From NCBI GenBank assembly GCA_964470695.1, contig CAYYDR010000002.1, positions 200,401-264,400 of the forward strand: DNA of 64,000 nucleotides, given 5' to 3'. Both the position numbers and the translations under genes were made by a program. The stretch comes from an uncultured Gammaproteobacteria bacterium (GTDB lineage: Bacteria > Patescibacteriota > Patescibacteriia > Patescibacteriales > UBA12465). The notes beneath the pieces were generated by a model. It had not been told where the DNA came from, ran no database searches, and worked only from the letters and a program-made list of their open reading frames with translations. The number at the start of each line of letters is the position of its first letter. Position 1 is the first letter of the stretch. Positions 3,001 to 64,000 of this stretch are shown piece after piece.

Positions 3001-4258
3001 CGGTTTCGGCGGCGGCGGGGGTTCCCATGGTGGGGCTAGTTATGGCGGTGGCGGGGGCGGGGGTTATGCGGGAGGAAGCGCCTATACTAGTTATTATGGT
3101 GGCGGCGGCGGAGGCTCTTATAACGCTGGCACTAATCAGTCTAATAGCGCCGGCGTCCAGACCGGCCATGGAAAAGTTGTTATTACTATGCCGAATTTAG
3201 CTCTTTCTTCTGGTCAGTATATTCAAGTTTTAGTTAATGCTGCCAAGGCGGCTAGTACTCCGACTACGGCGACGGTTACAGTTGGCTCGGGCGCACCCGT
3301 TACTTATACAGTGACAACCGGGACTGGCTCAGCAACGGCTTTTAGTTTTACCGATCAGACTGGAGTTTTAAAAAATACGGTTATCTCTTCAAACATAATT
3401 CCTATAACTAGTACGACTATAGTTGGGGCCACAGTAAGCGGAGCGGGGTCTCCCCAGCTTAGGATTTGTAGTACCAGTGATTGTTCTGCAGTAGTAAAGG
3501 ATTGGAGTGCGGCGGCTGACATTTCTAGTGGTCAATATTTACAAGTTAGGATGACTAGCTCTTTATCTGATTTAACAGCCATTATTACTAATGTTTATGT
3601 TGGTGATAAATCATCAAATTGGAGCGTTACTACTTTAACGCAAATTAGTCCGACCGGATTATCTTTAACACATAGCGCTAATTATAAATATTTCACTATC
3701 AATTGGACGGCTGGTACTGGTAACGGCGGGGCGGGCAGTTGTAAATTGCAGTTTATGGATCAGAACGTTTCTGGTACTTGGAAAGATATTGCTGGCACTT
3801 CTTTAAATTGTGACACTAATGTGTCTGGCCAAACTATTTATTTGCCAGAAGATTTTACTAGTAGTTGGACCAGTACTCATCAAGTTAGAATATATGTAAA
3901 TAATATTGCTCAGTCTGGAGGTACTTTTCCGCAGACTATTTCCTGTACTTCCCAGGGTCCTTCTTATTATAATCCTAGCCCTAATATTGATGAAAATTGC
4001 AACGGTAAGTTTGATGATCAAATAGAGTGGTATCAAAATACTTATCAGTGCTCTGACCAGGGGAATATTTGTGCTCATATGTGGACTTCAAATAGTACTG
4101 AAAATTGTGGTACTCAAGAGGGCGATTGGGGCGGCGGTTGCTACAGTTCTCTTAACTGTTACTATTGGTATGCGGGCCACTCTTATGGCACCTTTGCCGA
4201 GAGCCCTAGTTATGCTAATAACTGTATCTGGGATGAGTGGGTTTATTATTATTACTAA
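2..4258 (+). CDS. Giant secreted/surface protein with at least 3 ALK/LTK-type glycine-rich domains (GRD, Pfam Gly_rich-like); 5' end cut by the window edge
   Basis: Frame 2 is open from base 2. Bases 2-85 encode GTYTIDAYGASGGQGTSYTQYAFGKGAR, the same module as at 1292-1375. There are three copies of TGTY.IE..GA.GG...GKGARM.G.F.L.AG..I.ILVGQ.G...GGGGGT(F/Y)VV...AGGGGG...GFGGGGG.HGG.WGGGGGGGYSGG...GHGKV.IT, interleaved with ~95-aa Cys-pair beta-type modules. The Cys-rich tail ends in YYYY. Confidence 0.8.
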   Translation, partial: GTYTIDAYGASGGQGTSYTQYAFGKGARMKGDFFLYAGEVIRILVGQQGPSGTHDGGGGGGTFIVRQMGSIPMVVAGGGGGASYSGAGADAVTTTSGTAGPQGGTGGTAGGGGTSAGHAGAGAGFTTNGGNGPSSGSSCNGGISYINGGNGGCAASTATGGFGGGGGTHGSGWGGGGGGGYSGGGASTSSQYGGGGGGSYNAGTNQTNTAGTRTGHGQVFITSPGGDVTIVSYGDAAKFTGNVSLIGGIKLGDPGAGCNSQLEGGIKYSTSTKSFLGCNGANWSGFVSGNTTPDAFSFVTQTGLNAATTTISNIVQINGIISVAASASGPGSPQIRVCTDASCSNVTTDWTTAASVLNGRYIQAKQLSSSQSLGTNAALIAVGSSVASWQVTTANTTPNPFILTAAVPQTYNNSSTGQTGTIQTWTVPTTGTYSIEAYGASGGQGTSYTQYAFGKGARMKGDFVLTAGHVIKILVGQQGPSGSNDGGGGGGTYVVNETTGTLLLAAGGGGGASYSGPGADAVTGTSGTDGVQGGAGGTGGNGGTSIGCAGAGAGYNSNGGNGPSCGSCGGGVRYAGGGNGGTCGYATTGGFGGGGGTHGGGWGGGGGGGYSGGGASTSSQYGGGGGGSYNGGTNQSNTAGNNTGHGKVIVTGSSGALYPLNTLVSSNVAQVTGLTVNSLVFLAGSGTPQYRLCSNSDCSSVSRDWGTTTAPIANNTFLQVKAYSPSASNSTTTALVSIGTSTTPFNINTGSDFVNAFTIANTTNAYLNSIVSSTPVQITGNTVPAGIVVTGSGSPTVRICTDAACNNLVGNNTYNNTSTGYTGTIQTWTVPVTGTYIIETWGAEGGKATSYTYNGGKGARMRGEFSLTAGEVIKILVGQKGGAYSNEAMGGGGTFVVKQNGNVPLIIAGGGGGSSGNNATYSTGMDASITTSSTASQNNTCAGVAGPNGGSACSNAGSGAGFSGNGQAGSVSRIAYAYTNGGNGADTGENYTGYGAGASGGFGGGGGSHGGASYGGGGGGGYAGGSAYTSYYGGGGGGSYNAGTNQSNSAGVQTGHGKVVITMPNLALSSGQYIQVLVNAAKAASTPTTATVTVGSGAPVTYTVTTGTGSATAFSFTDQTGVLKNTVISSNIIPITSTTIVGATVSGAGSPQLRICSTSDCSAVVKDWSAAADISSGQYLQVRMTSSLSDLTAIITNVYVGDKSSNWSVTTLTQISPTGLSLTHSANYKYFTINWTAGTGNGGAGSCKLQFMDQNVSGTWKDIAGTSLNCDTNVSGQTIYLPEDFTSSWTSTHQVRIYVNNIAQSGGTFPQTISCTSQGPSYYNPSPNIDENCNGKFDDQIEWYQNTYQCSDQGNICAHMWTSNSTENCGTQEGDWGGGCYSSLNCYYWYAGHSYGTFAESPSYANNCIWDEWVYYYY
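21..75 (+). repeat. Intragenic near-identical DNA repeat; partner at 1311-1365
   Basis: Bases 32-75 are identical to 1322-1365 (44 nt, tcgggcggacagggaacgagttatacgcaatatgcttttggtaa). This reflects recent duplication or gene conversion between GRD copies. Confidence 0.9.
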
Positions 4259-4263
4259 TTTCT

Positions 4264-4866
4264 ATGGTGAAACAGAAAATAATTTTATTAGTCTCAGCCC
4301 TTAGCTTATTATTAGTTGGTTTTATTTTGGCGCTCAGTCTCGGTAAAGGGGGTAATGATAGGGGTTTGGAGGCTTTAGAATTGGCCGCTAATCCGCCAGT
4401 TACCTATACTAAAACCCCCGTTGTTGAATCAACGGTTGAATTAGTGCCGCCCTATGTTCCCGAGAAAAACATAGAGCCGACTCCGCCACCTATTCCCGAA
4501 GGAGCCAAACTTAACAGCCGTTTTGTTCTGGCTCCGACTAAGCCAGCAGAATCAGTTACTGATCCTATTACTGGCCAGATGACTAAAATTATCAATATTA
4601 ATGTTAATGAAAATATATCGCCCGATAAGATTTATTTAAGTAAAGGCGATTTGGTTAGTTTAAAAATTAATAATCAGCAGTTATCTACTCTGACTTTGGT
4701 GAGTAATGATAAAACCAGAATGAGCGATATGGAAATAGCGCCTGGAGAATCTAAAACGGTTGTTTATGATACTCTAAAAACCAGTGATTTATTTTTGATT
4801 TGTCAGACTTGCGTTCCGCCTAAGCCTTTAAATATTAAAATTTTAGTCGGCGGCGCTCCGAAATAA
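4264..4866 (+). CDS. Small N-terminally membrane-anchored protein with a degenerate cupredoxin-like C-terminal domain (partner of GRD protein 1)
   Basis: The ATG at 4264 is 5 nt after the upstream stop; I prefer it over the ORF-track start 4237, which overlaps the GRD gene. Features are TM helix MVKQKIILLVSALSLLLVGFILAL, a Pro-rich linker, and a beta-rich C-terminus with a CQTCVPP motif. It is a paralog of 8893-9507. Confidence 0.7.
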   Translation: MVKQKIILLVSALSLLLVGFILALSLGKGGNDRGLEALELAANPPVTYTKTPVVESTVELVPPYVPEKNIEPTPPPIPEGAKLNSRFVLAPTKPAESVTDPITGQMTKIININVNENISPDKIYLSKGDLVSLKINNQQLSTLTLVSNDKTRMSDMEIAPGESKTVVYDTLKTSDLFLICQTCVPPKPLNIKILVGGAPK

Positions 4867-32666: not shown

Positions 32667-32755
32667 GGAGAGTTCGCATAGTTGGTCTAGTGCGCACGCC
32701 TGGAAAGTGTGTATACCGCAAGGTATCGAGGGTTCGAATCCCTCACTCTCCGCCA
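32667..32755 (+). tRNA. tRNA-Ser (anticodon GGA at 32702-32704), CCA encoded
   Basis: Acceptor GGAGAGT/ACTCTCC, anticodon arm CACGC-CTGGAAA-GTGTG, long variable arm ATACC-gcaa-GGTAT, and T arm GAGGG-TTCGAAT-CCCTC. The gene ends GCCA. Confidence 0.9.
32735..32753 (+). repeat. 19-bp direct repeat (att, tRNA-proximal copy) cgaatccctcactctccgc
   Basis: Identical to 48928-48946. Confidence 0.9.
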
Positions 32756-38557: not shown

Positions 38558-39913
38558 TTATTCATTTCTCAGATTTAAATTTTTATCTTTTAATGTAATC
38601 TTGCTTCTCAAATTGGCCAGTAACTCCCTTTTTTCAACAGAACTTCCTTCTTTAAGCACGTATCTAGCATAAACACGCATATCAACTGCGGGCTTATGTT
38701 TTTTGTGAGGCTGTTTTTCCCCAAGTATCATATTTTGAAATTTGTTTAATCGCTCAACTTCCATTTCCATTCTGGTCAGTATTCCGAGTTCGTTCATATC
38801 TACTTTATCTATTATTTTTAATAATTCAGTTATTAATTCTTCTTCTCTAATATATTTATTTTTACAGAACCTATCTCTGGCCCTCGAACAACCATAATAA
38901 ATATAATGAGCCGTTGTTCCATCTTTAAGTTGTTTGTATTTATCTTCCGCCGATATGCCTGATCCGCAACAGCCGCAAGTAATCAGTTTTGTGAAAGCGA
39001 ATTCCTTGTTTTCCCTTTGAATATTATCTCGTTTAAGTTGGACTTTGGTCTTCTCAAATAATTCCTGGGTAATTAGTGGCTTATGTTTTCCTTGATACCA
39101 ATTGCCACTTCCTCTCGGTTTTTCAAATACGCCATAATAGAAAGGATTATCTAGTATTCTGTATATGCCGCTTAAAGTTAATGGTTTATTACCTCTAGTA
39201 TAAAAATTTAGCTCATGCCTGAGCCAATGATATAGTTTCCGTCCACTATATTTTTTATAGGCCACCATCTCAAACATTTGTTTTATAGCAGGGGATCGTA
39301 GCGGATCAACTATAACCTGGCATTTCTTATCCATTCTATTTTGATTTAAATAGCCGAGTGGCGCTCGCCCAACCCATAATCCCATTTCTGCTCTTGTTCT
39401 TAGTCCACGCTTTACATTAACGCCTCTATTATCATTTTCTAATTTGGCCTGTGATCCTAAAATCATCAGCAGAAATTTTTCATTAGGATTATTGGTAAAT
39501 CTTTGGCTGAAGGTGCGAATTTCTTTTAATATCCCTTGGTCTATCAAATCTACGATAGATCCTAGATCTCCAGCGTTTCTAGATATGCGATCTGGCGCCC
39601 AAGTTAGGATAGCATTGAATTTACCTTGTCTTATATCACTCACTAATTCGTTAAAGATTTTGCGTTGGCCAGTCTCTTTAGCGCTGTGTGATTCTCGCCT
39701 AATTTCGATAATATTTAGATTCTCTCGAGTGGCTAGATCAAGCATCTCTTTAATCTGGCTATCAATGGATAGTACCTGTCTTTCCTCGGATTCCGTGGAC
39801 TTTCGGGCGTAAAGGCAGTATTTGAGCGTTTCTTGCGGCAAGACCCCTAGATTAGCCCCATTTTGGCCTTCTAGGGTCGTTTTGGGGCTTAAAACTGTGC
39901 TTGTTTGGTTCAT
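38558..39913 (-). CDS. Large serine recombinase (resolvase domain + recombinase domain + zinc ribbon + coiled coil)
   Basis: YARKSTESEERQVLSIDSQ (catalytic Ser), DRISRN, Zn ribbon CGCCGSG...YYGCS...C. It is homologous to 59605-60984. Confidence 0.88.
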   Translation of the reverse strand: MNQTSTVLSPKTTLEGQNGANLGVLPQETLKYCLYARKSTESEERQVLSIDSQIKEMLDLATRENLNIIEIRRESHSAKETGQRKIFNELVSDIRQGKFNAILTWAPDRISRNAGDLGSIVDLIDQGILKEIRTFSQRFTNNPNEKFLLMILGSQAKLENDNRGVNVKRGLRTRAEMGLWVGRAPLGYLNQNRMDKKCQVIVDPLRSPAIKQMFEMVAYKKYSGRKLYHWLRHELNFYTRGNKPLTLSGIYRILDNPFYYGVFEKPRGSGNWYQGKHKPLITQELFEKTKVQLKRDNIQRENKEFAFTKLITCGCCGSGISAEDKYKQLKDGTTAHYIYYGCSRARDRFCKNKYIREEELITELLKIIDKVDMNELGILTRMEMEVERLNKFQNMILGEKQPHKKHKPAVDMRVYARYVLKEGSSVEKRELLANLRSKITLKDKNLNLRNE

Positions 39914-40034: not shown

Positions 40035-40207
40035 GCTAAACCGTAACCAAATTTCGTGAAGTCGCACCCATTATTGGGTGGCCTTGGCTTATTTGCATAC
40101 AGGAACGGACACACCGACCCTTATGCAAGTAGGCGTCTTCACGGACACTGATTGCGGTTTAGCGACCGGGTCGGGTGTCCGTTTTTGTATTTACGGACAT
40201 CGGACAT
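40035..40207. repeat. Repeat- and inverted-repeat-rich spacer upstream of the recombinase
   Basis: (A)CGGACA occurs 4 times in direct orientation (40105, 40141, 40193, 40200) and once inverted (40176-40182). Long-range complements are GCTAAACCG 40035-43 / CGGTTTAGC 40155-63, CGTGAAGTCGC 40055-65 / GCGTCTTCACG 40133-43, and ACGGACACACCGACCC 40105-20 / GGGTCGGGTGTCCGT 40168-82 followed by T5. Confidence 0.5.
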
Positions 40208-40577: not shown

Positions 40578-41003
40578 CTATAGTTCTTCTCTGCTTTTTT
40601 GGCCGCTCTCCATGTCTTTAATAGTGGAATCCAGTTCTTCATCGGACATATTCGAGAGATTCTTATGTCCGCAAGTCTTACAATGATCACCCGGTATCGG
40701 GGCTACCGGACTTATGGGCAACGGATTAGACATATAGTTTTCATGATTATGAGATAAATAAAATTTAGAGGCATTTATATTGCCCTTCTTAGCCTGAGAA
40801 ATAAGCGACATCTCTACTATTTCGTTGGTTCCCATTCTCCCTTGTTCTAAAGCAATATTTACTCTTTGCTTGAAATCCGAATTATCTTTTAGCCAACGAT
40901 ATATAGTTGCCCGAGAAATGCCTATTTTCTTGGCTGCATAGTAGATAGTAGGCATTTCTCGGAGAAACTCAATAAATCTAGATTTTTCCTGACTAGACCT
41001 CAT
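40578..41003 (-). CDS. HTH DNA-binding protein (phage terminase-small-subunit-like N-terminus)
   Basis: TIYYAAKKIGISRATIYRWLKDNSDF...KFYLSHNH. The start overlaps the methylase stop by 11 nt. Confidence 0.5.
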   Translation of the reverse strand: MRSSQEKSRFIEFLREMPTIYYAAKKIGISRATIYRWLKDNSDFKQRVNIALEQGRMGTNEIVEMSLISQAKKGNINASKFYLSHNHENYMSNPLPISPVAPIPGDHCKTCGHKNLSNMSDEELDSTIKDMESGQKSREEL

Positions 41004-42330
41004 ATATTTTTACCCGCTTCTTGCCGGTATACTTTTCCCAACGGTTGAGTATCACCTCGGCGTAGACTGGAGATTTCTCCATTAAAAAGCATTTCCGGCC
41101 TAGCATGGTCGAGGCAATAAGCGTACTACCGGATCCGCCGAATGGTTCAAGAACCAGTTGGTCGCGCTTGGTTAGAACTTTGATATAGGGAATGAGGATA
41201 TTTGTCGGTTTCGTTCCAAAGATTATTCCTTGACCAGACGATTTTTCATCTGCGGCCACATGTTCAATGAAGTCGGTTGGGCAGTATTTTTTGCCAGCCT
41301 CATAATTTTCCCATTGCGGTTTACCAGAAATGGCGAAAAGAGCAGTTTCATATTCATTCTGTAAGCCTTCACCCTCACCTTCTAGATTATACTCGATATT
41401 AGCATCCTCAGTGCACCCGACAACGGCTATGTCATATTTATTGAAGAATTTATACTTGGCGGCAAAGCCCTGGACTCGATTATTGAGATGCCACACAATC
41501 ATATTCTTTACTTTCCAGTGTTTTTCCATTTCATTCCATATTGTCCGGATGTTCTTCCAGTTTTCGTAGACGATGATAGAGGCACTATCGGCTTGAACTT
41601 TAGCCACACCGCACATCCATAATTCGGTGAAGTTATTGGGCAGGGAGTCGGTTTCTAAGTAACGCCTGTTCTTCTTAGCGCCAAAGCCAGTGGTTGCTTC
41701 GCCATGACGTGATTTGCCGTGTAAGTAATCTAATAAATAAGGGGGATCTGTTAATATTAGCGAAAATTTATTCCCATCAGCCAGCTTTAGCATGTCCGCT
41801 TCAATCGTGCTATCGCCGCACATCAGTCTCGATCCATCTAAATCATAGATATCGCCTTTTTGGATATTGATTTCATTAATATTCAATTTCTCTAGCTCCT
41901 TATTCAGGTCAAAAATTTCCTCAGTCGGATCTTCCTCAAAGATTTTATCTAATTCTTCAGAATCAAATCCGACATCTTTCAGAAATTCTTCATCAAATTC
42001 AGCTAATAGAGTAAGATCGAATTCGCCTTGATTTTTGTTCAGTCTGAGATTGAGCTCCTTTTCTTTTTCTATATCTGGAATGTTCACATAACAAACTGGC
42101 ACTGTCTCAAAGCCCAGTTCTTTAGCCATCGCCCAGCGGAAGTGGCCACCGATGATGATATTCAGGCGCTCTGGAGCTGAATTAACTACAAATGGGTCGA
42201 CTAACCCAAAGCGTTTGATACCTTCTTTTAGCTGTTCAGCCGCTTCTTTATCCCATTTTCTAGGATTGTACTCGGCTGGTTTTAACTCGTTGATTGGCAG
42301 GTATGTGACCTGTAGTTTTTCTTTGTTCAT
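40993..42330 (-). CDS. ParB-like nuclease domain fused to N6A/N4C DNA methyltransferase (beta class)
   Basis: ParBc block LKPAEYNPRKW...IIIGGHFRW. Methylase motif IV is LILTDPPY and motif I is LEPFGGSGSTLIA. Confidence 0.85.
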   Translation of the reverse strand: MNKEKLQVTYLPINELKPAEYNPRKWDKEAAEQLKEGIKRFGLVDPFVVNSAPERLNIIIGGHFRWAMAKELGFETVPVCYVNIPDIEKEKELNLRLNKNQGEFDLTLLAEFDEEFLKDVGFDSEELDKIFEEDPTEEIFDLNKELEKLNINEINIQKGDIYDLDGSRLMCGDSTIEADMLKLADGNKFSLILTDPPYLLDYLHGKSRHGEATTGFGAKKNRRYLETDSLPNNFTELWMCGVAKVQADSASIIVYENWKNIRTIWNEMEKHWKVKNMIVWHLNNRVQGFAAKYKFFNKYDIAVVGCTEDANIEYNLEGEGEGLQNEYETALFAISGKPQWENYEAGKKYCPTDFIEHVAADEKSSGQGIIFGTKPTNILIPYIKVLTKRDQLVLEPFGGSGSTLIASTMLGRKCFLMEKSPVYAEVILNRWEKYTGKKRVKIYEV

Positions 42331-42685: not shown

Positions 42686-42714
42686 TTGACATTTCTTTAT
42701 TTAGGGTGTATATT
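42686..42714 (+). promoter_or_regulatory. Sigma70-type promoter of the LexA-like operon
   Basis: TTGACA 42686-42691, 17-nt spacer, TATATT 42709-42714. Confidence 0.6.
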
Positions 42715-42735
42715 ATGGTTAGTAATAAAAAATAT

Positions 42736-43371
42736 ATGCATAAAAACCAAGAGAGCTTGATTGAGTTGGCTAAAAAAAAGGATATTTCAAAAATGAGTTA
42801 TCGGGAAATAGGCCGGGAGGTAGGTATAGCAAATCCGCAGACTGTTGTTCATCATCTTAATCAATTAAAGAGGATGGGGCTTTTGTACCTTGGTTCTGAC
42901 AATAAGCAAAAAGTAGCCAAAAATGAACCGTTCGTGACCGACAATCTATTTAATATTCCTATTCTAGGGTGTGCCAACTGCGGTCAGGCCTTAGAGTTAG
43001 CGCAACAGAATCTTTTAGGCTTTTTGAAAATTTCTCCTAGGATATTGGAGCGTAAGAGGCCGGATCAGCTTTATATTGTTAAAGCGGTGGGCGAATCAAT
43101 GAACCAGGCTCGAGACGTTAAAGGTGGTCCTATAGAAAATGGTGATTATGTTATAGTTGACTACGGAAACAAGGATCCGCAAGACGGGGATTATGTTTTA
43201 TCAGTCATTGATGGTGCGGCTAATATAAAAAGATTTTATAAGAACAGGAAAGAAATCAGACTAATCTCTGAATCCAGTTTAGGTATTCCACCGATTATTT
43301 TACACGAAGATGATTTAGAGGCTCACGGTTATTTGGTAAATGGTGTCGTAGTCAGAGTGATTAAGAATTGA
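42736..43371 (+). CDS. LexA/CI-like repressor (wHTH + S24 peptidase)
   Basis: N-terminal HTH MSYREIGREVGIANPQTVVHHLNQLKRMG, S24 Ser VKAVGESM, and Lys ANIKRFY. The ATGs at 42706/42715 lie inside the -10 element, so ATG 42736 is the first plausible start. Confidence 0.8.
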   Translation: MHKNQESLIELAKKKDISKMSYREIGREVGIANPQTVVHHLNQLKRMGLLYLGSDNKQKVAKNEPFVTDNLFNIPILGCANCGQALELAQQNLLGFLKISPRILERKRPDQLYIVKAVGESMNQARDVKGGPIENGDYVIVDYGNKDPQDGDYVLSVIDGAANIKRFYKNRKEIRLISESSLGIPPIILHEDDLEAHGYLVNGVVVRVIKN

Positions 43372-43629: not shown

Positions 43630-46600
43630 ATGAAATGGATTGATGTAGGAGATATAAAAAATTGGGTTAACGGTAAACAAAGGCATTGTGCTCAAACGTT
43701 GCCAGAGCTTATTCGTAGGCTTATTTTTGCTACGTCCTCGACGATAGAAGAAATCAATTTTCCAAGTGGTGATAGTGTAGCAAATGGAGGCTGGGATGGA
43801 TATTTAAAAACACCAAATATTTCTCCTTTATTTCCATCAGGCATTTCTGTTTGGGAAATTGGCACAAAAAAAACTCCGGGCAAGAAGGCTGATGCTGATT
43901 ATTTAAAAAGAACTACTAATCCGTTAGGAGTTAATAAAGGTGATACTAGTTTTGTTTTTGTAACTCCATATACTTGGCAAAAGGGCAAGGAGTGGGAAAA
44001 AAATAAAAGGCTATTAAATGAATGGAAGGATGTTCGAGTCGTGTCTTCTGATCATATTGAATTGTGGCTTGAATCGGCTCCGGCAGTAGCGTTATGGCTT
44101 GGTAGACAAATAAAGGGACTATCTGATCAGATTCGTGATATTGAAGGCTTTTGGGAGGAGTGGGCTGTTGCCACCAATCCGGAAATGACGGCAGAACTTG
44201 TTTTAGGAGGAAGAATCAAAGAAGCAAAACACATACAAAATTGGATAAAAGATAAAGCGTCTATTGTAGAGGTTAGAGGAGATTCGCCTGATGAGCCATT
44301 CGCTTTTTTTTATAGTGCAGTTTCAACTCTTCCAGAAGCCGAAAAAATACAAGTTTTTTCACGTTGTATTGTTGTTGAAGATATAAAACAATTTCGTACT
44401 TGTGTTACTACTTTTCAAAACCCTCTCATTATTGCTGCTCCATCTGAGTGCAGAGATGCGGCCGGATTAGCGGTAAAAAATGGGCATCATGTATTTTTAA
44501 GCGCCGATTCAAAATCACTAGATTTTCGTTCTAATCTTTTGCAGCTTTCTCGCCCCAGGCGCGAGATAGTGGAAGAATGTTTAAAAAAATCTGGCCTCTC
44601 TGAAAAAGATTCAAGAAGTCTTGCGAGAGATTTTGGTAGAAGTATCCCCGTTCTGAGACGTCATCAATTTGTGGCAAGCGCTAAAATACCTGAATGGGCT
44701 AGCGAAGACTCATCTAAAACATTGATTCCATTATTGTTTGCCGGTGCATGGGATGAAAATAAAGAAGGCGACAGACAACTTATCGAGCTATTAGCAGGCG
44801 TTTCTTACGACGAATATATTAAATTATTATCTCCGCTCCTTTTAATTGATGATTCCCCAATTAGGAAAGTCGGCAGTGTTTGGATACTAAAATCTCCCCT
44901 TGATGCTTGGTACATAATTGCTCTAAATGTTACTGATGACAATTTGAATCTTTTCGAACAAGCAGTGGCTGCTGCTTTAACAAAAACTGATCCTAAATAT
45001 GATTTAGAAGCGGAAAAACGCTGGATGGCTAGTGTATACGGAAAATCTAATCCATACTCTGAGTGGGTTAGAGAAGGTTTGGTTGAATCACTAGTTCTAA
45101 TCGCCGTTTATGGCAATCGTTCGCCTTTTATCAAAACATCTACTCAGATATTTGCAGACAACGTAGTTAAAAATATTCTTGCCAGTGCAAATAAATGGGA
45201 GATGTGGGCGTCTATCAAGGATGTGACTCCGCTGTTAGCAGAAGCCTCTCCTGACGCTTTTATGAGTGCTGTAGAAAAAATCATAATTGAAGATAAGGGA
45301 CTTTTAAAAGACCTTCTATCAGACGATGGAACAATGTTTGGCGAGTGTCGTCATGCTGGTTTGCTTTGGGCGCTCGAATCAATTTCTTGGAGTCCGGAAC
45401 ATTTTTCTCGTGCTGTAAATATACTGTATGAGTTATCAAATATAGATTTAGGAGGCAAATGGAGCAATCGCCCCATAAATAGCCTGAAAGATATTTTTGC
45501 GCCAGGACTACCACAAACTCATGCTGATCCGAATCAACGCTTATTAGTTTTGAAATCATTTATAGAGAAAGACCCTAAAACTACTTGGAGATTTGTTAAA
45601 GATTATTACGGAATGGGATCAATGAGCGAGTCCCATATGTTTAGGTGGCGTGATACCGGCGGGAGCCGTCGTGGTTTAGAGCACGAGAGTCCAGATGATC
45701 ACTCTGTTTACATTAAAGGGTTATTGCCATTATTTACTGAATTAGCTTGTAAAAAAGAAAATATAATTTATGCCACTGATGATTTCACTCGTCTATCGGG
45801 AGATATAAGAGAGTATCTTTTAAAAACGTTAGAAAAAGAAACTATCAATTCTTTTTCCGTGGAAGAAAGATTGGAAATTTTTCATAATGTAAGAGAAGCT
45901 TTAAATTGGGTTAATAGTTATGGTAAAGATGAATTCCGCAAGCAAATCCCTGCGTTAGAAAATATATATAAAAAATTCACTCCTGAAAATATTTTAGACA
46001 AATATGGTTGGCTAATAAGTGATCCTTGGCCGAGATTACCTCAAGGAGAGCCAAAAGATTATGAGGCTAAAAATGACACCGTAAAAATCGCTCAGGAAGA
46101 AGCAGCTAGAGAAGTTTTAAATCAAGTTTCGGCAAAAGACATAGTTTATTATTCTACAACAATAGGATATCCAGGAGTTTTTGGACGCATACTTGGTAGA
46201 ATTGTAAATAATGGCGAAGAAGAAAACAAGATATTTGATGAGATGATCAAGGATTACGCAAAAAATTCAATATTTATTCAAGGTTATGTTACTGGTAGGT
46301 TTGAAAAAAATGGTGATGGTTGGCTAGAGCAGCAAATTACAAGATTAAAAGAGTTAGGCGTCTATTCTGCTGAAGCTTGCGCTTTGTTATATCTTGGGAG
46401 AAAAGAGAATGCTGAAACATGGTCTATGATTAGTAAATATGGGGAAGACGTGGAAGACTCTTACTGGAGACAAGCCACTGGATATTCTGTAGATAACAAA
46501 AAGGAAGACGCATATATTGCAATAGAAAAACTGTTGGATGTTGAAAGACCGGCAGCAGCCCTTAAAATTGCTGGCGACTCTGATATACTGGTGCCAAGCC

Positions 46601-47415
46601 AGCTATTGCAAAGACTCCTTCAGGATTTTGTAAAAATTGAAAATAATGAACCACGGGATAGAACAATGGATGTATATTATTTAGGAAATATATTTAATCA
46701 ACTATATCAAAGAAATGATTTGCCATTAGAGGTTGTAGCAAAACTCGAATGGCCATATGTTTCTTTATTTGATGAATTTAAACGTTATACAACTTTTTCA
46801 ACAGCATTACATCGAAATTTGCAAACAGACCCTTTATTATTTGCCCAACTAATACCTTTTTTATATAAATCAAGTAACAAAGAATTTGATAAAGATAATA
46901 AATTAGATAAAAAATCTCAAGAAAGGATGTGGCATGTCGCTCATGATTTATTAGATTCCTGGTATCTCCTACCTGGATTAGAGGATGATGGAAATTTGGA
47001 CGAAGAAAAATTAAAAAAATGGATAGTTGATGCTCGCAGTAAATGCCAAGAAACTGGTCATGTTACTGGATGTGATATTCAAATTGGATTTATATTAGCA
47101 CATTCTCCTAGCAATCTAGATGGAACATGGCCACATGCGGCCGTTTGCAATATTATAGAGTTTTTAGATAATGAGACCATTGATAGACATATTGAAAATG
47201 AAATATATAATAGCAGGGGCGTTACTTCAAGAGGGTTAAATGATGGAGGTGCACAAGAAAGAGACTTAGTTCAAAAATATAAAAAAATGAGCGATGACGC
47301 TAAAGCTAAGTGGCCGCGAACCAGTAGATTGCTATTGAATATTTCTAAATCTTATGAGCTCGAGGCAAAAAGACATGATGTCGATTCTGATTTGCATGAT
47401 TTAAGCTGGAAATAA
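43630..47415 (+). CDS. 1261-aa protein of unknown function: N-terminal alpha/beta domain (possible PD-(D/E)xK-like) followed by a long helical-repeat body; no NTPase motifs found
   Basis: The start is 5 nt after DUF2188. The N-terminus reads LPELIRRLI...SGDSVANGGWDGYL...SVWEIGTKK...DADYLKR. I could find no Walker A (GxxxxGK[ST]) and no DExx helicase box by eye. Confidence 0.75.
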   Translation: MKWIDVGDIKNWVNGKQRHCAQTLPELIRRLIFATSSTIEEINFPSGDSVANGGWDGYLKTPNISPLFPSGISVWEIGTKKTPGKKADADYLKRTTNPLGVNKGDTSFVFVTPYTWQKGKEWEKNKRLLNEWKDVRVVSSDHIELWLESAPAVALWLGRQIKGLSDQIRDIEGFWEEWAVATNPEMTAELVLGGRIKEAKHIQNWIKDKASIVEVRGDSPDEPFAFFYSAVSTLPEAEKIQVFSRCIVVEDIKQFRTCVTTFQNPLIIAAPSECRDAAGLAVKNGHHVFLSADSKSLDFRSNLLQLSRPRREIVEECLKKSGLSEKDSRSLARDFGRSIPVLRRHQFVASAKIPEWASEDSSKTLIPLLFAGAWDENKEGDRQLIELLAGVSYDEYIKLLSPLLLIDDSPIRKVGSVWILKSPLDAWYIIALNVTDDNLNLFEQAVAAALTKTDPKYDLEAEKRWMASVYGKSNPYSEWVREGLVESLVLIAVYGNRSPFIKTSTQIFADNVVKNILASANKWEMWASIKDVTPLLAEASPDAFMSAVEKIIIEDKGLLKDLLSDDGTMFGECRHAGLLWALESISWSPEHFSRAVNILYELSNIDLGGKWSNRPINSLKDIFAPGLPQTHADPNQRLLVLKSFIEKDPKTTWRFVKDYYGMGSMSESHMFRWRDTGGSRRGLEHESPDDHSVYIKGLLPLFTELACKKENIIYATDDFTRLSGDIREYLLKTLEKETINSFSVEERLEIFHNVREALNWVNSYGKDEFRKQIPALENIYKKFTPENILDKYGWLISDPWPRLPQGEPKDYEAKNDTVKIAQEEAAREVLNQVSAKDIVYYSTTIGYPGVFGRILGRIVNNGEEENKIFDEMIKDYAKNSIFIQGYVTGRFEKNGDGWLEQQITRLKELGVYSAEACALLYLGRKENAETWSMISKYGEDVEDSYWRQATGYSVDNKKEDAYIAIEKLLDVERPAAALKIAGDSDILVPSQLLQRLLQDFVKIENNEPRDRTMDVYYLGNIFNQLYQRNDLPLEVVAKLEWPYVSLFDEFKRYTTFSTALHRNLQTDPLLFAQLIPFLYKSSNKEFDKDNKLDKKSQERMWHVAHDLLDSWYLLPGLEDDGNLDEEKLKKWIVDARSKCQETGHVTGCDIQIGFILAHSPSNLDGTWPHAAVCNIIEFLDNETIDRHIENEIYNSRGVTSRGLNDGGAQERDLVQKYKKMSDDAKAKWPRTSRLLLNISKSYELEAKRHDVDSDLHDLSWK

Positions 47416-48815: not shown

Positions 48816-48946
48816 TGTTGTAGTTGGGGAGGGATTCGAAAGCCGGAGGCGATGCGCACTTGTGCGCCGCCGAGGCCGGGTCGGGGCGCTTGCTTTTCGC
48901 TGAGCGTAGCGAAAGCGAAAAGCTTAGCGACCGTGACCGAATCCCT
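48816..48946 (+). ncRNA. GC-rich, strongly structured element of unknown identity abutting the island end (candidate ncRNA or cis-regulatory/att-associated structure)
   Basis: A closing helix GAGGGATTCG 48819-28 / CGAATCCCTC 48928-37 encloses two hairpins. The first is GGCG-at-GCGCA-CTTG-TGCGC-CGCC (48838-61). The second is GCTTTTCGCT 48882-91 / AGCGAAAAGC 48904-13. The element is flanked by terminators on both sides and is very GC-rich for this genome. Confidence 0.35.
48928..48946 (+). repeat. 19-bp direct repeat (att, distal copy; displaced original tRNA-Ser 3' end)
   Basis: cgaatccctcactctccgc is identical to 32735-32753. It continues ACAT, so there is no CCA. Confidence 0.9.
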
Positions 48947-48950
48947 CACT

Positions 48951-48981
48951 CTCCGCACATAAAATAACCCTAGTAAAATGG
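48951..48981 (+). terminator. Weak intrinsic terminator (probable original tRNA-Ser terminator)
   Basis: AAAATAACCC-10 nt loop-GGGTTGTTTT with a T-run. Confidence 0.4.
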
Positions 48982-59418: not shown

Positions 59419-59505
59419 GGAGAGGTGCCAGAGTGGTTTAATGGAACAGTCTTGAAAACTGTCGTCGATGAAAGTCGACCCAGGGTTCGAATCCCTGCCT
59501 CTCCG
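59419..59505 (+). tRNA. tRNA-Ser (anticodon TGA at 59453-59455), no CCA encoded
   Basis: Acceptor GGAGAGG/CCTCTCC, anticodon arm ACAGT-CTTGAAA-ACTGT, long variable arm CGTCGA-tgaaag-TCGACC, and T arm CAGGG-TTCGAAT-CCCTG. Confidence 0.9.
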
Positions 59506-59511
59506 CAGATT
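59499..59511 (+). repeat. 13-bp direct repeat (att, tRNA-proximal) ctctccgcagatt
   Basis: Identical to 63437-63449. Confidence 0.8.
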
Positions 59512-59534
59512 GTCAATATCGTTATCAACAGAAC

Positions 59535-59586
59535 AATTAGCTAGGGTTTCAAAGGGTTCTTTGAAGTTAATCTTAGCTAATTTTTT
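59535..59586 (+). terminator. Compound hairpin + T6 (current tRNA-Ser(UGA) terminator, island-derived)
   Basis: AATTAGCTA / TAGCTAATT enclose the inner hairpin TTCAAA-gggttc-TTTGAA, followed by T6. Confidence 0.45.
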
Positions 59587-59604
59587 GTTGGCTATTTCAG
59601 TGTT

Positions 59605-60984
59605 CTAAAGTATCTCATTAAGCATTTTTCTTTTATCGTCTAAACTGATTTTGAAAAATGCTTTTTTCATTGATTTAGGGGCTAAAAAGAAATTTCTGGT
59701 GAGTTCCAAATCTTTTTCTGTTAAGACTACTTCCTGCTCGCTTTCCAGTTTTTTGAGGGCTTCGTTAAATTCCTTTATCTCATTTTTTATTGCTGCCTCT
59801 TTGGCCTCGTAATCCCCCTGGCTGATCGTTTTATCCAGCCGCAGGTTAAATAGCTCGTCTTTCCTATTTTCTCGTTTCCTAATCTCGTTTAAGAGGTTAT
59901 TTTTGGCCTCCAGGTATTCTCGTTTGTCTGGATTGTGGTTAATGAGTAGCTCTCGGCTATTGTGGTACATACGCTCTACTAAGCCCTCGTCAATGACTAG
60001 GTTATCAAACACTCCTCCTAACGTTTTAATGGCTTCCTCCTCTTTGAGATAATGATTATGCTCGCTACAGCCGCCCCGGCCATTGGTGCAGTAGTAATAG
60101 ACGTATCGGCCTTTCTTTCGGCTAGCTGTCAGCAGGCAGCCGCATTTGGCACAGGTCATGAGTCCCCGGAAGTGAAAATATGGTCGTTTCTTTTTGGGGT
60201 GCTGTTTAAGATTCATTACCGCTTGGCACTCGTTAAATAGTTGTTTAGATATAATCGTTTCATGTTTGCCTGGATATTCTTTGCCGTGAAATTGCATGAG
60301 GCCACAATAGAAAGAATCATTAATTAGTTTATAGATCTTGCTCTTGTGATATTTAACATTGCCCCTACTTCTAAATCCCTCCTCATACATCTGATTAGCT
60401 AATTCTTTCATGGTATAATTGCCAGTCGCATATAGTTTAAATATCTTCTTGATATACTTCGCCCTAACTTTATCAATTTTAATTCCACCTTTCCCGTCAT
60501 TGAGATAGCCGATAGGAGCAAAGTTTGGCCATAACCCCTTTTCAATTTTAGTTTGTATTCCTCGTTTAACATTTTTTGATAAGTCCAAAATATATTGATT
60601 AGCCATTGAGCCCTCGATATTGAGCAAGAGAACATTATCACTGGGCAGATATTGCCTATCGCTCGTTTGGATAGCCTTAATATGCCCCTGTTGGAGCAAC
60701 CATTGAATTTTTCCGCTATCTATTGGATTACGAGACAACCTATCTATCTTCCAACAGATAATTCCGTAGTCTTCGGAGCTATTATTTTCTAATAGCTTAA
60801 CCATTTCTAAAAAAAGCGGTCTATTGTTTGGCAACTTAGCCGATTTGCTCTCGGTGTAGGTTAAAGCAATGTCTAGCCCCAGATTAGAAGCCAGTTTATT
60901 CATTTCTATCACTTGGCTTTCCAGAGATAGGATTTGTTTGCTCTTGTCCTCGGAGGACTTGCGAGCATAGAGGATGTATTTCAT
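59605..60984 (-). CDS. Large serine recombinase
   Basis: MKYILYARKSSEDKSKQILSLESQ (catalytic Ser), DRLSRN, Zn ribbon CAKCGC...YYYCTNGRGGC, and a C-terminal coiled coil. Confidence 0.88.
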   Translation of the reverse strand: MKYILYARKSSEDKSKQILSLESQVIEMNKLASNLGLDIALTYTESKSAKLPNNRPLFLEMVKLLENNSSEDYGIICWKIDRLSRNPIDSGKIQWLLQQGHIKAIQTSDRQYLPSDNVLLLNIEGSMANQYILDLSKNVKRGIQTKIEKGLWPNFAPIGYLNDGKGGIKIDKVRAKYIKKIFKLYATGNYTMKELANQMYEEGFRSRGNVKYHKSKIYKLINDSFYCGLMQFHGKEYPGKHETIISKQLFNECQAVMNLKQHPKKKRPYFHFRGLMTCAKCGCLLTASRKKGRYVYYYCTNGRGGCSEHNHYLKEEEAIKTLGGVFDNLVIDEGLVERMYHNSRELLINHNPDKREYLEAKNNLLNEIRKRENRKDELFNLRLDKTISQGDYEAKEAAIKNEIKEFNEALKKLESEQEVVLTEKDLELTRNFFLAPKSMKKAFFKISLDDKRKMLNEIL

Positions 60985-61020
60985 ATAGTTTTAGCTAAAT
61001 AGCTTTAAGGTGAATTATGG

Positions 61021-61216
61021 TGACGGCCCTTTGTGTGCGTATAGTCAAGTTAATATATATCTAGGGAAGGGCCGTCAGGATCGGCCGCGTTTTCCTTTTT
61101 TCGGCTCCCCCAAGGGGATGCCGCCAAAAAAAGGAAAAAACTGCGGCGGCCGGTCTGCCGTCCCCATTACTCTAACACACCGCTATTCCCGAAAGTTACG
61201 GGTAAAATTTAGGGGA
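61021..61216. other. GC-rich multi-hairpin element between the recombinase and the CHAT gene (candidate ncRNA or recombination/regulatory structure)
   Basis: Helix A is TGACGGCCCTT 61021-31 / AAGGGCCGTCA 61067-77. A ~79-nt rod (61078-61156) is built from GGATCGGCCGC/GCGGCCGGTCT, GTTTTCCTTTTTT/AAAAAAAGGAAAAAAC and CGGCtCCCC-caa-GGGGatGCCG. The helix TCCCC 61161-65 / GGGGA 61212-16 encloses CCCG-7 nt-CGGG. Confidence 0.4.
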
Positions 61217-61269
61217 ATTTTCTATCAAAAAGGCCAATTATTTCTATGTTTTTAGGGTAGCAGGTTAAA

Positions 61270-61397
61270 GTTCTGAAAAGTTCTGGTACCATTTTTCAGA
61301 ACAAGTCATATCTATTGTTTTTATTGAACTTTTTAATTAATGTTTTCAGAATAGCATAGGAGCATTTGGAAAAGTTTGGTCAAAGATTTGGTCAAAG
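61270..61397. promoter_or_regulatory. Iteron-like repeats upstream of the CHAT gene
   Basis: GTTCTGAAAA 61270-79 / TTTTCAGAAC 61293-302 form an inverted repeat, with an extra direct GTTCTG at 61280-85. The tandem TTTGGTCAAAG occurs at 61375-85 and 61387-97. Confidence 0.4.
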
Positions 61398-61507
61398 TTT
61401 ATATGATTAGTTTATGCAAAGGCACTAGAATATCATTTATAGAATGTATTTTTTAGATTTGCTGATTCTGTATTTTTATGGTATTTCTATAGAGTAGATG
61501 CATTATT

Positions 61508-63376
61508 ATGATTTTAGAAATAGATAAAAGGGCGGTTTGCATAACGCATGATTATAAAATGGCTGCCATTATTTCTACTTATTTCAACCATGAAAATCGG
61601 TATTTTTCGGTTTTTTATCTTCCGAATGTAAAAAAAGATGGAGATATAGTAAATAAAATATCAGGAGAAATAAATTCAATATTTATATCAAATAGAATTA
61701 TTAAATTAAAACCAGAATTTATAATATTGGCCGGATTAAGTAATTTTCAAAAGTCGCTGTTCAAAAAATTCAAAAATATATTAAGTATTGATAACCTTGA
61801 GGAAATTCATGACAAATTAAAAATTTTTAATAGTTTTGATGGTGATTTATTATGTTCAGAAAAAGATTTGATCAAGGGCTTGTTTGTTGCAAAACAAGAA
61901 AATAAGAGGATTATTATTGACAAATCAGCACCTCCAATTAATATCGTTAATAAAAAGAAAGGGATTATTTCAGTTATTGAAGATCATTTAGATGTCTTTT
62001 CTTTAACATCAATTAATTATATTTCTACTATTAAATCAGATTTGGTGATAATACCGTCAGTTTCTGAAAAACAATTGAGTCAGCTAAAAAAATATTTATT
62101 TAGGCACAAGAGTGAACCAGAAAATATTGAGATAGATTGTCATGTTAAAGTACTAACAAAAAATATAAGTGGAATTAAATTTAATATCTATACTAGAGCA
62201 ATTTTTTTCACTATTGGCGTGCCTTATGGGTATTTGATAAATAATTCTATACCAAATTCTCATGTTTTTAGCCGCCTTGTTGGCTATTTTATTTTTGATA
62301 ATATATTTATTAGTGAATTTCATGACACTTTTTTTTCATTTTTGAATTTTTCTATATTTAAAAATGACGAATCATCAAAAATTATTAAAATATTTAAAAA
62401 ATGTGGTTTTTATACCAAAAACTTATCAGAAGAAGATGGCACATCCACAAGATATAATTTTAAAAATTATGTAGAACATTTCCCGTATGATATTTTGCAT
62501 ATTTGTAGTCACGGAGGAATGTTAAGCGGGAACTTTATTAAAAAAGATTTTTTGGACGATAATGGGAATATGCATAGCTTGGAATATTATGAGGTGGTTG
62601 ATTTTGAAAAAATCGATAGAATTGATAGCAGAGGGGAACCGTTAATTGGCGTGACTAGAAAATTGGTTTATATAAAGTTAGACGGCTACCCTTGGGCAAG
62701 CGATGAATTACATAATGCGAATATTCCAGAATCAGTAATTAAAAAAATTAGAGACGTTTCTTCTATAGATGGGCTAAATGGTGAAGATGTGGTTATCGTA
62801 CCGTTTAAAGGATATATACCGTCGTCTTGTTATGTTAAATGTTTAGATAACATTCATCAGGGTAATTTTCATTATTTAGCTGGTCAAACATCGCCTATAA
62901 TTTTTAATAATTCCTGCCATTCATGGGATTCTTTGGCATATCAGTGGATAGGAAGGGGAGCGCGAGGATATGTAGGTACGCTTTGGGAAGTAGGTGATGA
63001 CGTCGCAAAATATTCAGCAGAAAATTTTTATAGATTTGCTTTAAATAATAATGCAGAGATAGTGTCTTGTGTATTTAATTTAAATAAAAGAATAAAAAAA
63101 GAAAAATATAAAAACATTTATATATATTGGGGCCTGCCTTTAGTAAAAATTGAAAAACCAGCAAAACCCATTATGCTAAAGAGTATAATTAGTGGTGTAT
63201 CGAGAGCATTAATGGAGCATTTAAGAGGTCTCGAATCAATATATAAAGATAAAAGTACAGAAGAAGAAGTCAGAGAAAATAGTTTTGATGTTTTAAAGTT
63301 TATTTTTAATGTTTTAGCATTTGATTTAAAAGTATTAAATTTAAATAAATTAAGACAAATTATTAATAAAAAATAG
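61508..63376 (+). CDS. 622-aa protein: unknown N-terminal ~330 aa + C-terminal CHAT (caspase-like clan CD) protease domain
   Basis: The His block is YDILHICSHGG and the Cys block is SPIIFNNSCHSWD. It also has the CHAT-typical tail GARGYVGTLWEVGDDVAKYSAENFY. Confidence 0.65.
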   Translation: MILEIDKRAVCITHDYKMAAIISTYFNHENRYFSVFYLPNVKKDGDIVNKISGEINSIFISNRIIKLKPEFIILAGLSNFQKSLFKKFKNILSIDNLEEIHDKLKIFNSFDGDLLCSEKDLIKGLFVAKQENKRIIIDKSAPPINIVNKKKGIISVIEDHLDVFSLTSINYISTIKSDLVIIPSVSEKQLSQLKKYLFRHKSEPENIEIDCHVKVLTKNISGIKFNIYTRAIFFTIGVPYGYLINNSIPNSHVFSRLVGYFIFDNIFISEFHDTFFSFLNFSIFKNDESSKIIKIFKKCGFYTKNLSEEDGTSTRYNFKNYVEHFPYDILHICSHGGMLSGNFIKKDFLDDNGNMHSLEYYEVVDFEKIDRIDSRGEPLIGVTRKLVYIKLDGYPWASDELHNANIPESVIKKIRDVSSIDGLNGEDVVIVPFKGYIPSSCYVKCLDNIHQGNFHYLAGQTSPIIFNNSCHSWDSLAYQWIGRGARGYVGTLWEVGDDVAKYSAENFYRFALNNNAEIVSCVFNLNKRIKKEKYKNIYIYWGLPLVKIEKPAKPIMLKSIISGVSRALMEHLRGLESIYKDKSTEEEVRENSFDVLKFIFNVLAFDLKVLNLNKLRQIINKK

Positions 63377-63436: not shown

Positions 63437-63449
63437 CTCTCCGCAGATT
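63437..63449 (+). repeat. 13-bp direct repeat (att, distal copy)
   Basis: ctctccgcagatt is identical to 59499-59511. Confidence 0.8.
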
Positions 63450-63522: not shown

Positions 63523-64000
63523 ATGAACAAAGTAATAGTCGCGGGGAGTATTAATCAGGATATCGTCGTTTTTTCTAAAAGTCATCCTAAAATTGGCGAA
63601 ACTATCCTTGGTCTAGATATTAAATATTTCCCTGGTGGCAAGGGGGCGAATCAGGCCGTGGCCTCGGCAAAGTTTGGCGCAAAAACATTAATGTTGGGCA
63701 AGGTCGGTAATGATGTCTTTGGTAGGCAGTTAGTCGCCTTCCTTAATCAGCAAAGTGTTGAAACTAGGGTCTCGGTTGATCGGGCTATGCCTACGGGAAT
63801 AGCCATTATTACGGTAGCGGAAGAAACGGCAAATAATACTATAGTAGTTGTCCCTGGTGCTAATTTTGCTCTAGCAGAAGACAATATTAACAATGTAAAC
63901 TTTGAGAAAGGTGATGTTCTTGTTTCTCAATTTGAAATACCAATAAAAACAATAGTATCTTTTTTTAAAAAAGGCAGAGAGGTGGGGGCAACTAATATCT
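63523..64000 (+). CDS. rbsK: Ribokinase (PfkB family), 3' end beyond the window
   Basis: MNKVIVAGSINQDIVV...YFPGGKGANQAVASAKFG...GNDVFG. The frame is open to the window end and is not in the ORF track. Confidence 0.8.
   Translation, partial: MNKVIVAGSINQDIVVFSKSHPKIGETILGLDIKYFPGGKGANQAVASAKFGAKTLMLGKVGNDVFGRQLVAFLNQQSVETRVSVDRAMPTGIAIITVAEETANNTIVVVPGANFALAEDNINNVNFEKGDVLVSQFEIPIKTIVSFFKKGREVGATNI

Follow-up and report, generated by a model that had tools for sequence, protein, structure and literature searches.

The 64-kb stretch of contig CAYYDR010000002.1 analysed here (the window) carries a hairpin-rich DNA element in the 523-bp spacer between a large serine recombinase (LSR) gene and a cargo open reading frame (ORF) of a small integrated island, island 2. 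The element is probably a cis-acting intergenic origin region of tRNA-integrating, rolling-circle elements of the Candidate Phyla Radiation (CPR; Patescibacteria, Falkowbacteria-like). As judged by sequence comparison, its near-invariant motif and its long rod-like hairpin are homologous to a module lying directly upstream of the gene for an HUH replication initiator (Rep) in related elements. Because the fullest of these relatives are filamentous prophages, we think it likely that the module is the intergenic region of a CPR inovirus family and its derivatives.

Mobile elements and viruses of CPR/Patescibacteria are little known. The present analysis links a covariation-supported DNA module to tRNA-integrating, serine-recombinase-bearing filamentous prophages and their reduced derivatives, offers a concrete candidate nick site and candidate single-strand signal that are open to biochemistry, and identifies a diverged LSR clade that has kept the putative origin and lost Rep. 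The module is new as a sequence family; its probable kind, a rolling-circle filamentous-phage origin or intergenic region, is known. A literature search found no account of the module, the reduced elements or the Rep-less LSR clade. A reading in which the LSR is guided by RNA, tempting but unsupported, is set aside.

Structure and conservation of the element

The element consists of the following features (strand given where it applies):

61021..61031: 5' arm of helix 1, TGACGGCCCTT, the perfect 11-bp complement of 61067-61077
61033..61060, minus strand: motif block, recognised by homology across loci; the 20-mer is 61035-61054
61067..61077: 3' arm of helix 1, AAGGGCCGTCA, pairing with 61021-61031
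61078..61157: rod hairpin of ~33 bp with a GC-rich base and its loop at 61111-61113 (covariance model, covariation)
61161..61220: weak third hairpin (minimum-free-energy folds; the pattern recurs in relatives with other hexamers)

The hairpins of the element are a real structure. Helix 1 consists of 11 perfect base pairs enclosing a 35-nt loop, while the arms of the rod are T-rich on the 5' side and A-rich on the 3' side, with the apex CGGCtCCCC-CAA-GGGGatGCCG. Both had been described in an earlier reading of this DNA made without database searches (the sequence-only reading), and both are borne out by the sequence and by folds that beat shuffled controls. Folded as plus-strand RNA, 61015-61225 reaches -83.6 kcal/mol (z = -4.5, with 0 of 200 shuffles as good); the minus strand reaches -74.2 (z = -3.1) as RNA and -45.5 (z = -5.0) as DNA. 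The GC-rich character noted in the same reading is likewise evident, with 52-62% GC (50-nt windows, 61075-61150) against 20-36% deeper in island 2, whose mean is 30-32%. The proposed nested third helix fares less well. TCCCC at 61161-65 is able to pair with GGGGA at 61212-16, but the helix is short and weak, an alternative of equal quality exists (ATTCCC 61186-91 / GGGAAT 61213-18), and the third helix as such is not kept in relatives. An internal repeat search detected no second copy of the element in the window. Rfam 15, applied to the window at gathering and permissive thresholds and to 8 related loci at gathering thresholds, returned only tRNAs; the Rfam scan that the sequence-only reading had suggested thus assigns the element to no family, its best match being mir-734 with E = 8.9.

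Relatives of the window LSR are encoded at 79 genome loci, nearly all in metagenome-assembled genomes (MAGs) of Falkowbacteria or other Patescibacteria. Many MAGs with these elements are labelled 'uncultured Gammaproteobacteria'; this taxonomy is probably wrong, because their gene content and closest relatives are those of Patescibacteria. On the minus strand, which is the sense strand of Rep and LSR, the motif reads TTAACTTGACTATAC and the whole block ATTAACTTGACTATACGCAC. Copies of the 20-mer GTGCSTATRGTCAAGTTAAT were found in 99 metagenome stretches and in 3 IMG/VR contigs, nearly always followed by the rod. In the 12 closest LSR loci (74-86% protein identity), which were found by LSR homology alone and without using the motif, the spacer is mostly scrambled except for the motif block and the rod. 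The block in these loci reads GTGTGTGCGTATAGTCAAGTTAAT(A)TATA, and conservation beside related recombinases, a point that the sequence-only reading had left to comparison, is apparent from a core 19-mer that is exact in 10 of the 12. Diverged Rep loci carry variants of the motif: CAACTTGATTAT in L057 and L059, both of which also encode Zot, and AACTTGATTAT at the equivalent position in L053. Taken with the window, these variants define the family core as AACTTGA(Y)(Y)AT.

The phiX174 origin is CAACTTG^ATATTAATAAC (NC_001422, rep_origin annotated at 4306). The window sequence AACTTGAC shares the 7-nt match AACTTGA with phiX174 CAACTTGAT, and L057 and L059 carry CAACTTGAT itself, a 9-nt match; both are resemblances only. 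By analogy, the candidate site of nicking by Rep falls between 61046 and 61045 of the minus strand (CTTG^AC), and the candidate nick-site sequence as a single-stranded DNA (ssDNA) oligonucleotide is 5'-TATATTAACTTGACTATACGCACAC-3'. Among 71 non-redundant copies, the motif core is unpaired in 50 of the ssDNA folds and both unpaired and enclosed by a stem in 38. In copies of the subfamily next to Rep, a perfect 11-bp hairpin has the core as its loop. A flanking stem of at least 7 bp is present in 27/71 relatives, compared with 9% in a cross-pairing control, and the 11 bp of the window are the longest. The stem around the motif that is a feature of rolling-circle origins is found in the window as an 11-bp perfect stem.

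A second origin-like motif, GGTTATCCTTGTTAA(A/G)AGAAC.., lies between the LSR start and the 20-mer in L001-L003 and L007. The same motif directly precedes the rod in L028, L045, L048 and L033, a clade whose Rep is 28-33% identical. Its core TTATCCTTG recalls the pC194-type sequence TTATCTTGATA.

The rod was analysed with a covariance model, R1, which gives the window copy 93.7 bits on the plus strand and 33.4 on the minus strand. R1 matches the window once, at 61078-61157, and this copy is among the best-scoring of the rods found in ~140 loci, including loci with LSR identity of only 30-60% and diverged motifs. The model was built on a hand-checked rod structure, and fitting the alignment to it favours pairing. 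Across 72 distinct sequences, 90.7% of cells are paired, versus 79.2% when shuffled and at most 65.6% when the partners are slid. Change on both sides is seen in 26 of 32 pairs, and the covariation score of 0.354, against 0.152, is reached by none of 500 shuffles. The margin is large despite the model-fitted alignment, and covariation, which the sequence-only reading had asked to be examined, is strong for the rod. Examples of compensatory change are TTTTGG...CCCAAAA and CGACGAG...CTCGTCG in L009. The best match has a constant orientation relative to the neighbouring gene, scoring ~60 bits over the opposite strand, so the asymmetries of the rod (a 3' CC bulge, extra A's) are conserved. MAFFT with RNAalifold recovers 13 pairs only from 33 rods, because the stem lengths of the rods vary.

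In relatives, the motif and the rod are 50-149 nt apart. In L005 (~3830-3880) an AT-rich insertion splits the rod at its apex (..GGGGATG|ATATATTTATATTAGAG..). The rod was rejected as an intrinsic terminator: on either strand the T-run lies before the apical hairpin and the A-run after it. A bidirectional terminator was discarded likewise, the T and A tracts being on the wrong sides, and a terminator scan of the element detected only a 5-bp stem at 61070-61086.

Rep and filamentous-phage genes around the module

The start of a divergent gene always lies 10-134 nt left of the module. The gene itself differs between loci and encodes an LSR, an ORF of ~120 aa, an ORF of ~100 aa, an HTH_17 protein or a protein of 257-269 aa. 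The last of these matches Pfam REP_ORF2-G2P (5e-15) and the rolling-circle initiators of PHROG. It aligns with phiX174 protein A through motif 1, the HUH motif (IHYHVL/LHFHAV) and VGLYVAKYIGK/VGFYVAKYVNK, at ~23% identity over 239 aligned positions. Rep is encoded in 97 of 181 loci, and the exact 20-mer lies within 450 nt upstream in 54 of 94 Rep loci. Among deposited phages, the Reps closest to this protein are initiators of uncultivated inoviruses and microviruses (25-42% identity). The DNA module had no match among deposited phages, and a search for solved structures of Rep found none.

The gene order tRNA / LSR / Rep / module is present in L085, L100 and L145. In L085 the target is a tRNA-Glu gene and the order is that of the window plus an inserted Rep. 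Across the family, the LSRs target tRNA-Ser (TGA/CGA/GGA/GCT), tRNA-Glu (TTC/CTC), tRNA-Gln and tRNA-Asn genes, and LSRs found beside the same motif and apical hairpin are only 30-86% identical. A second attachment (att) repeat was found in L080 and L145 only among 12 related loci, the flanks of the others being too short.

The fullest elements have the module flanked by Rep on one side and, on the other, by a filamentous-phage block comprising a Zot/pI ATPase and a coat-like protein. The genes right of the module in L130 and L163 include one for a Zot/pI ATPase (Pfam 8e-11 and 4e-9, above cutoff), which also matches the PHROG family 'protein I of M13', and one for an 85-aa protein with a match to the CTXphi core pilin/coat PHROG; small membrane proteins and large ORFs of adsorption-protein size are encoded there as well. 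At least 24 loci, the three IMG/VR contigs among them, encode a Zot homologue, and every such element has an LSR.

Two further features recur in the phage-type loci. A ~120-aa ORF beginning MIYKNIKxEFDYILWLRERI.. starts ~35 nt left of the module in L100 (2680-3033), L130 and L163; it matches no family, and its reading frame differs from that of the Rep ORF, whose start it overlaps. A conserved block, ATTGTCTATCTGTGG..TCTCATTTTAGCGTCAGCTTATCG, is located ~60-110 nt right of the rod in L100, L130, L163, L087 and others. This block contains TAGCGT, the CS-6 hexamer of ssoA-type single-strand origins.

Lack of Rep characterises the LSR clade of the window. No Rep is encoded within 1.5 kb at any of the 37 loci whose LSR is at least 70% identical to that of the window, and none of these loci has Zot. 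An adjacent Rep is present in 33 of 50 loci with an LSR of 45-70% identity, and in 32 of 50 below 45%, where 11 have Zot. The motif and rod are kept in the Rep-less clade, which implies that they act without a Rep in cis, either by trans action or in a Rep-independent role. L124 and L126 each contain a Rep-encoding element next to a Rep-less LSR mini-element, in tandem on one contig, so helpers can share a cell with Rep-less elements. Two mini-elements are in tandem in L176.

Proposed function and competing readings

Origin regions with such structure are well known from filamentous phages and rolling-circle replicons, and a mechanism can be proposed by analogy. Helix 1 would display the motif TTAACTTG^ACTATAC in its loop as the Rep nick site, making this the plus-strand origin. 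Rep would nick the motif on the supercoiled excised circle, leading to displacement synthesis. The 33-bp rod would then form on the displaced single strand; its place 5' of the putative nick hairpin and Rep makes it a candidate packaging signal or complementary-strand origin, or both. The orphan origin of the window would act only if a co-resident or infecting relative supplied Rep and coat proteins in trans, a helper role resembling that for a phagemid or miniphage. Otherwise the window copy would be a recent relic.

The intergenic region of the Ff phages (M13/f1/fd) is the closest parallel in layout. In Ff, hairpin A is the packaging signal and hairpins B and C the minus-strand origin, and phagemids and miniphage, with this region alone, depend on a helper for replication and packaging (PMC10334589). 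Both regions are non-coding hairpin clusters directly upstream of Rep (gene II in Ff), and in each a nick-site hairpin, a candidate one in the module, stands alongside a long imperfect hairpin. The nick hairpin and gene II of Ff have hairpins A, B and C on their 5' side, a placement that the rod matches; the rod also has the fixed orientation of the conserved long imperfect hairpin in inovirus intergenic regions. Further, Zot/pI and a coat-like protein are among the products of related CPR elements. Unlike Ff, however, the CPR elements integrate into tRNA genes by an LSR, the two regions lack sequence similarity, and the candidate nick motif is closer to that of phiX174/pC194 than to the Ff site. 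The window copy also lacks any phage gene, and the hairpin roles are assigned by analogy. Inoviruses have been predicted in CPR hosts, and rolling-circle Reps as well as serine recombinases are among the reported inovirus protein families (Roux et al. 2019, PMC6813254).

Other rolling-circle systems share individual features. With phiX174/pC194 (CTTG^ATA, HUH Y2 Rep) the module shares the core AACTTGA, extended to CAACTTGAT in variants. The Rep of relatives has the HUH and YVAKY motifs of phiX174 protein A, and the candidate nicked strand is of the same sense as the rep gene. The phiX174 origin, in contrast, lies within gene A and functions without a hairpin; the module motif is intergenic and often looped. 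Single-strand origins and initiation sites (sso/ssi) are long, orientation-specific imperfect hairpins of 80-150 nt by the double-strand origin that are active without Rep, and double-strand origins have nick hairpins (PMC5714925). The rod is similarly a long, orientation-specific imperfect hairpin next to a candidate double-strand origin, but no known sso sequence type is recognisable in the window, the CS-6-like TAGCGT being found in fuller relatives only. Actinomycete integrative and conjugative elements such as pSAM2 combine tRNA-gene integration with rolling-circle replication after excision (PMC2440964); they differ in having tyrosine integrases and conjugation.

It is possible, if doubtful, that the Rep-less LSR islands (LSR at least 70% identical, Rep 0/37) are natural phagemid-like satellites of CPR filamentous phages. 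Such islands would excise by their own serine recombinase, a helper Rep would act on the conserved nick motif to yield single strands, and packaging via the rod would allow the cargo (here a CHAT-like protein) to be ferried between ultra-small bacteria. Like the RS1 and TLC satellites of Vibrio cholerae and laboratory miniphage and phagemids, they would be small, helper-dependent for morphogenesis and in possession of a cis origin. RS1 and TLC encode their own Rep-type initiator, whereas the window-type elements encode no Rep and carry an LSR integrase and cargo. If helper-dependent, the islands would be nature's equivalent of laboratory phagemids and would provide a route of gene flow in bacteria for which manipulation is not yet possible.

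Several observations weigh against an origin function, particularly in the window. A cognate HUH Rep adjoins the module in family relatives and not in the window copy; tblastn and a profile of 88 Reps at maximum sensitivity (best E 0.5) detected no Rep anywhere in the 64 kb, and no Zot, p97 or p120 was found there either. Origin function in the window is therefore hypothetical and dependent on an unseen helper. The window also lacks the TCTAAAATCTCATTTA block and the TTAGCGTCAGCTTATC block of the full phages (the TAGCGT block is absent). Nicking rests only on the 7-9-nt resemblance and gene adjacency, and we estimate the chance that the block shares a 7-mer with the 30-nt phiX origin at ~6%. 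Helix 1 reaches at least 7 bp in only 27 of 71 relatives, and is thus enriched and not universal. The strand evidence is mixed: the fitted plus-strand alignment contains 84 G-T and 56 A-C pairs, yet in 45 of 62 relatives the gene-sense (minus) strand gives the better fold, contrary to these wobble counts. A nonsense codon in the LSR suggests that this copy may be decaying. Finally, a promoter, operator or 5' untranslated region (5'-UTR) role would explain conservation in Rep-less elements equally well.

That last role, in which the module is the control region of the leftward operon, with the motif as promoter or operator and the rod as 5'-UTR RNA (for example an RNase III or translation-control hairpin) or a source of a small antisense RNA, is in our judgement fairly unlikely. 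It would account for the constant position 10-134 nt upstream of a divergent gene start, for retention of the module in the Rep-less clade and for the slightly better folding of the gene-sense strand (45/62 relatives). By eye, a conserved TGnTAnAnT sequence resembling an extended -10 lies just right of the rod on the gene-sense strand, and a candidate leftward extended -10, TGTGTTAGAGT, lies at ~61169-61180 on the minus strand. Rolling-circle origins also commonly overlap rep promoters. Nevertheless, 60900-61500 contains no sigma-70-type consensus promoter on either strand (there is one at 61568-61596), the rod is no terminator on either strand and no Rfam family matches. Moreover, an invariant 20-28-nt block with a phiX-like CTTGA core exceeds the needs of a promoter, the distance from module to gene start varies, and the genes (LSR, Rep, the 120-aa ORF, the HTH protein) are unrelated.

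The window copy could alternatively be a non-functional relic, an origin inherited from a phage ancestor and not yet decayed, which we consider unlikely. The LSR nonsense codon, the lack of Rep and virion genes in the window and the absence of two blocks of fuller relatives fit this explanation. The same lack of phage genes identifies the window copy as a derivative and not as part of a phage genome, and together with the nonsense codon it leaves the origin an orphan. Against decay, the 19/20-mer is exact in 10 of 12 members of a clade at 73-86% LSR identity with scrambled flanks, rod pairing is kept through compensatory changes, and the window rod is among the best copies (93.7 bits).

The sequence-only reading had raised a guide or bridge-like RNA, or a platform for accessory factors, that programmes the LSR. 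The element does adjoin a recombinase gene, with several hairpins and conserved loops, but we now regard such a role as very improbable. Loop, apex and motif do not vary among elements with at least eight tRNA targets and LSRs of 30-86% identity, and no complementarity of 11 nt or more exists between the element and the att flanks. The gene adjacent to the module is Rep, not LSR, in most of the family, the module tracks Rep and filamentous-phage genes and not LSR, and the second LSR of the window lacks such an element. In addition, the recombinase is of the large serine type and not of the DEDD/IS110 family. That the 81-aa ORF at 61010-61255 encodes a small protein is scarcely credible, open though its frame is in the window. 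It has no Pfam match, the longest stop-free frames change strand and frame among relatives, and the conservation pattern is that of paired helices. The motif-rod spacing of 50-149 nt has no mod-3 preference (classes 20/18/14), so no reading frame is conserved. The preference of the sequence-only reading for a structured nucleic acid over a protein is accordingly upheld.

Three other candidates were rejected: an invertible promoter, for which the 35-bp spacer is too short; the element as attP, since the att core sits at the island ends; and pieces of a retron or group II intron, there being no reverse transcriptase and no Rfam match.

Island 2 and other features of the window

Island 2 and its genes comprise the following (strand given where it applies):

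59419..59506, plus strand: tRNA-Ser(TGA), integration target and left boundary of island 2 (ARAGORN, Rfam)
59420..59604, minus strand: LSR C-terminal tail, in frame past the TAG and into the tRNA complement (translation compared with homologues)
59499..59511: left direct repeat CTCTCCGCAGATT, 13 bp, the att core (repeat search)
59605..60984, minus strand: LSR, 459 aa, truncated (Pfam Resolvase, Recombinase, Zn_ribbon_recom)
within 61161..61220: triple-hexamer unit ATTCCC-GAAA-GTTACG-N12-GGGAAT, another description of the third hairpin
61271..61303: second triple-hexamer unit, GTTCTG-AAAA-GTTCTG-N11-CAGAAC (sequence; relatives)
61508..63376, plus strand: cargo ORF, 622 aa, with a weak CHAT-like match (Pfam CHAT 23.0 bits, cutoff 24.0)
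63437..63449: right direct repeat, right boundary of island 2 (repeat search)

The left att repeat consists of the last 8 nt of tRNA-Ser(TGA) and 5 bases beyond, and the att repeats share 18/20 identity over 20 nt. Given the 13-bp repeat at 59499-59511 and 63437-63449, island 2 is ~3.9 kb long. Beyond its right boundary a ribokinase-like host gene, judged by eye, begins at 63524. The cargo ORF has no match in PHROG.

The LSR of island 2 contains an in-frame TAG at 59605-59607, a position occupied by Trp in every aligned homologue. Homologues are 500-530 aa long with a conserved tail of ~60 aa, which remains encoded past the TAG in the window; the translation, NTEIANKKLAKINFKEPFETLAN..RGRDSNPG, agrees with the tails of homologues. 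With TAG in place of Trp and the tail still in frame, the window copy therefore carries a nonsense mutation, which resembles a single-base change from TGG to TAG. In homologues (L001-L060) the LSR ORF runs across the attachment site and takes its final residues, ..RDSNPR, from the strand complementary to the T-arm of the host tRNA. Integrated and excised elements would thus encode different C-termini.

Triple-hexamer units, GTTxxx-AAAA-GTTxxx-N10-12-xxxAAC, in which a hexamer occurs twice directly and once inverted, are located at 61186-61220, 61271-61303 and 61370-61395. The second has a 97% match over 39 nt in L004 and is also present in L081 and L102. The word varies by element (GTTAAG, GTTCTG, GTTCCC, TTTGAC), and TTTGGTCAAAG direct repeats occur too. 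The direct copy co-varies as well, which a simple hairpin leaves unexplained. The units may be protein-binding sites of shifting specificity.

The window contains a second serine recombinase, for which the sequence-only reading had described an equivalent structured region at 40035-40207. That region is unrelated to the element, the rod model matching the window only at 61078-61157. It contains ACGGACA ~5 times in both orientations and a 15-bp hairpin, ACGGACACACCGACCC / GGGTCGGGTGTCCGT, followed by a T-run. A 19-nt repeat of the tRNA-Ser(GGA) 3' end at 32735-32753 and 48938-48956 suggests that this recombinase (38558-39913) belongs to an island 1 of ~16.2 kb. Also assigned to island 1 by eye are a ParB/methylase-like ORF (40993-42330), a LexA-like ORF (42706-43371) and a 1261-aa ORF (43630-47415).

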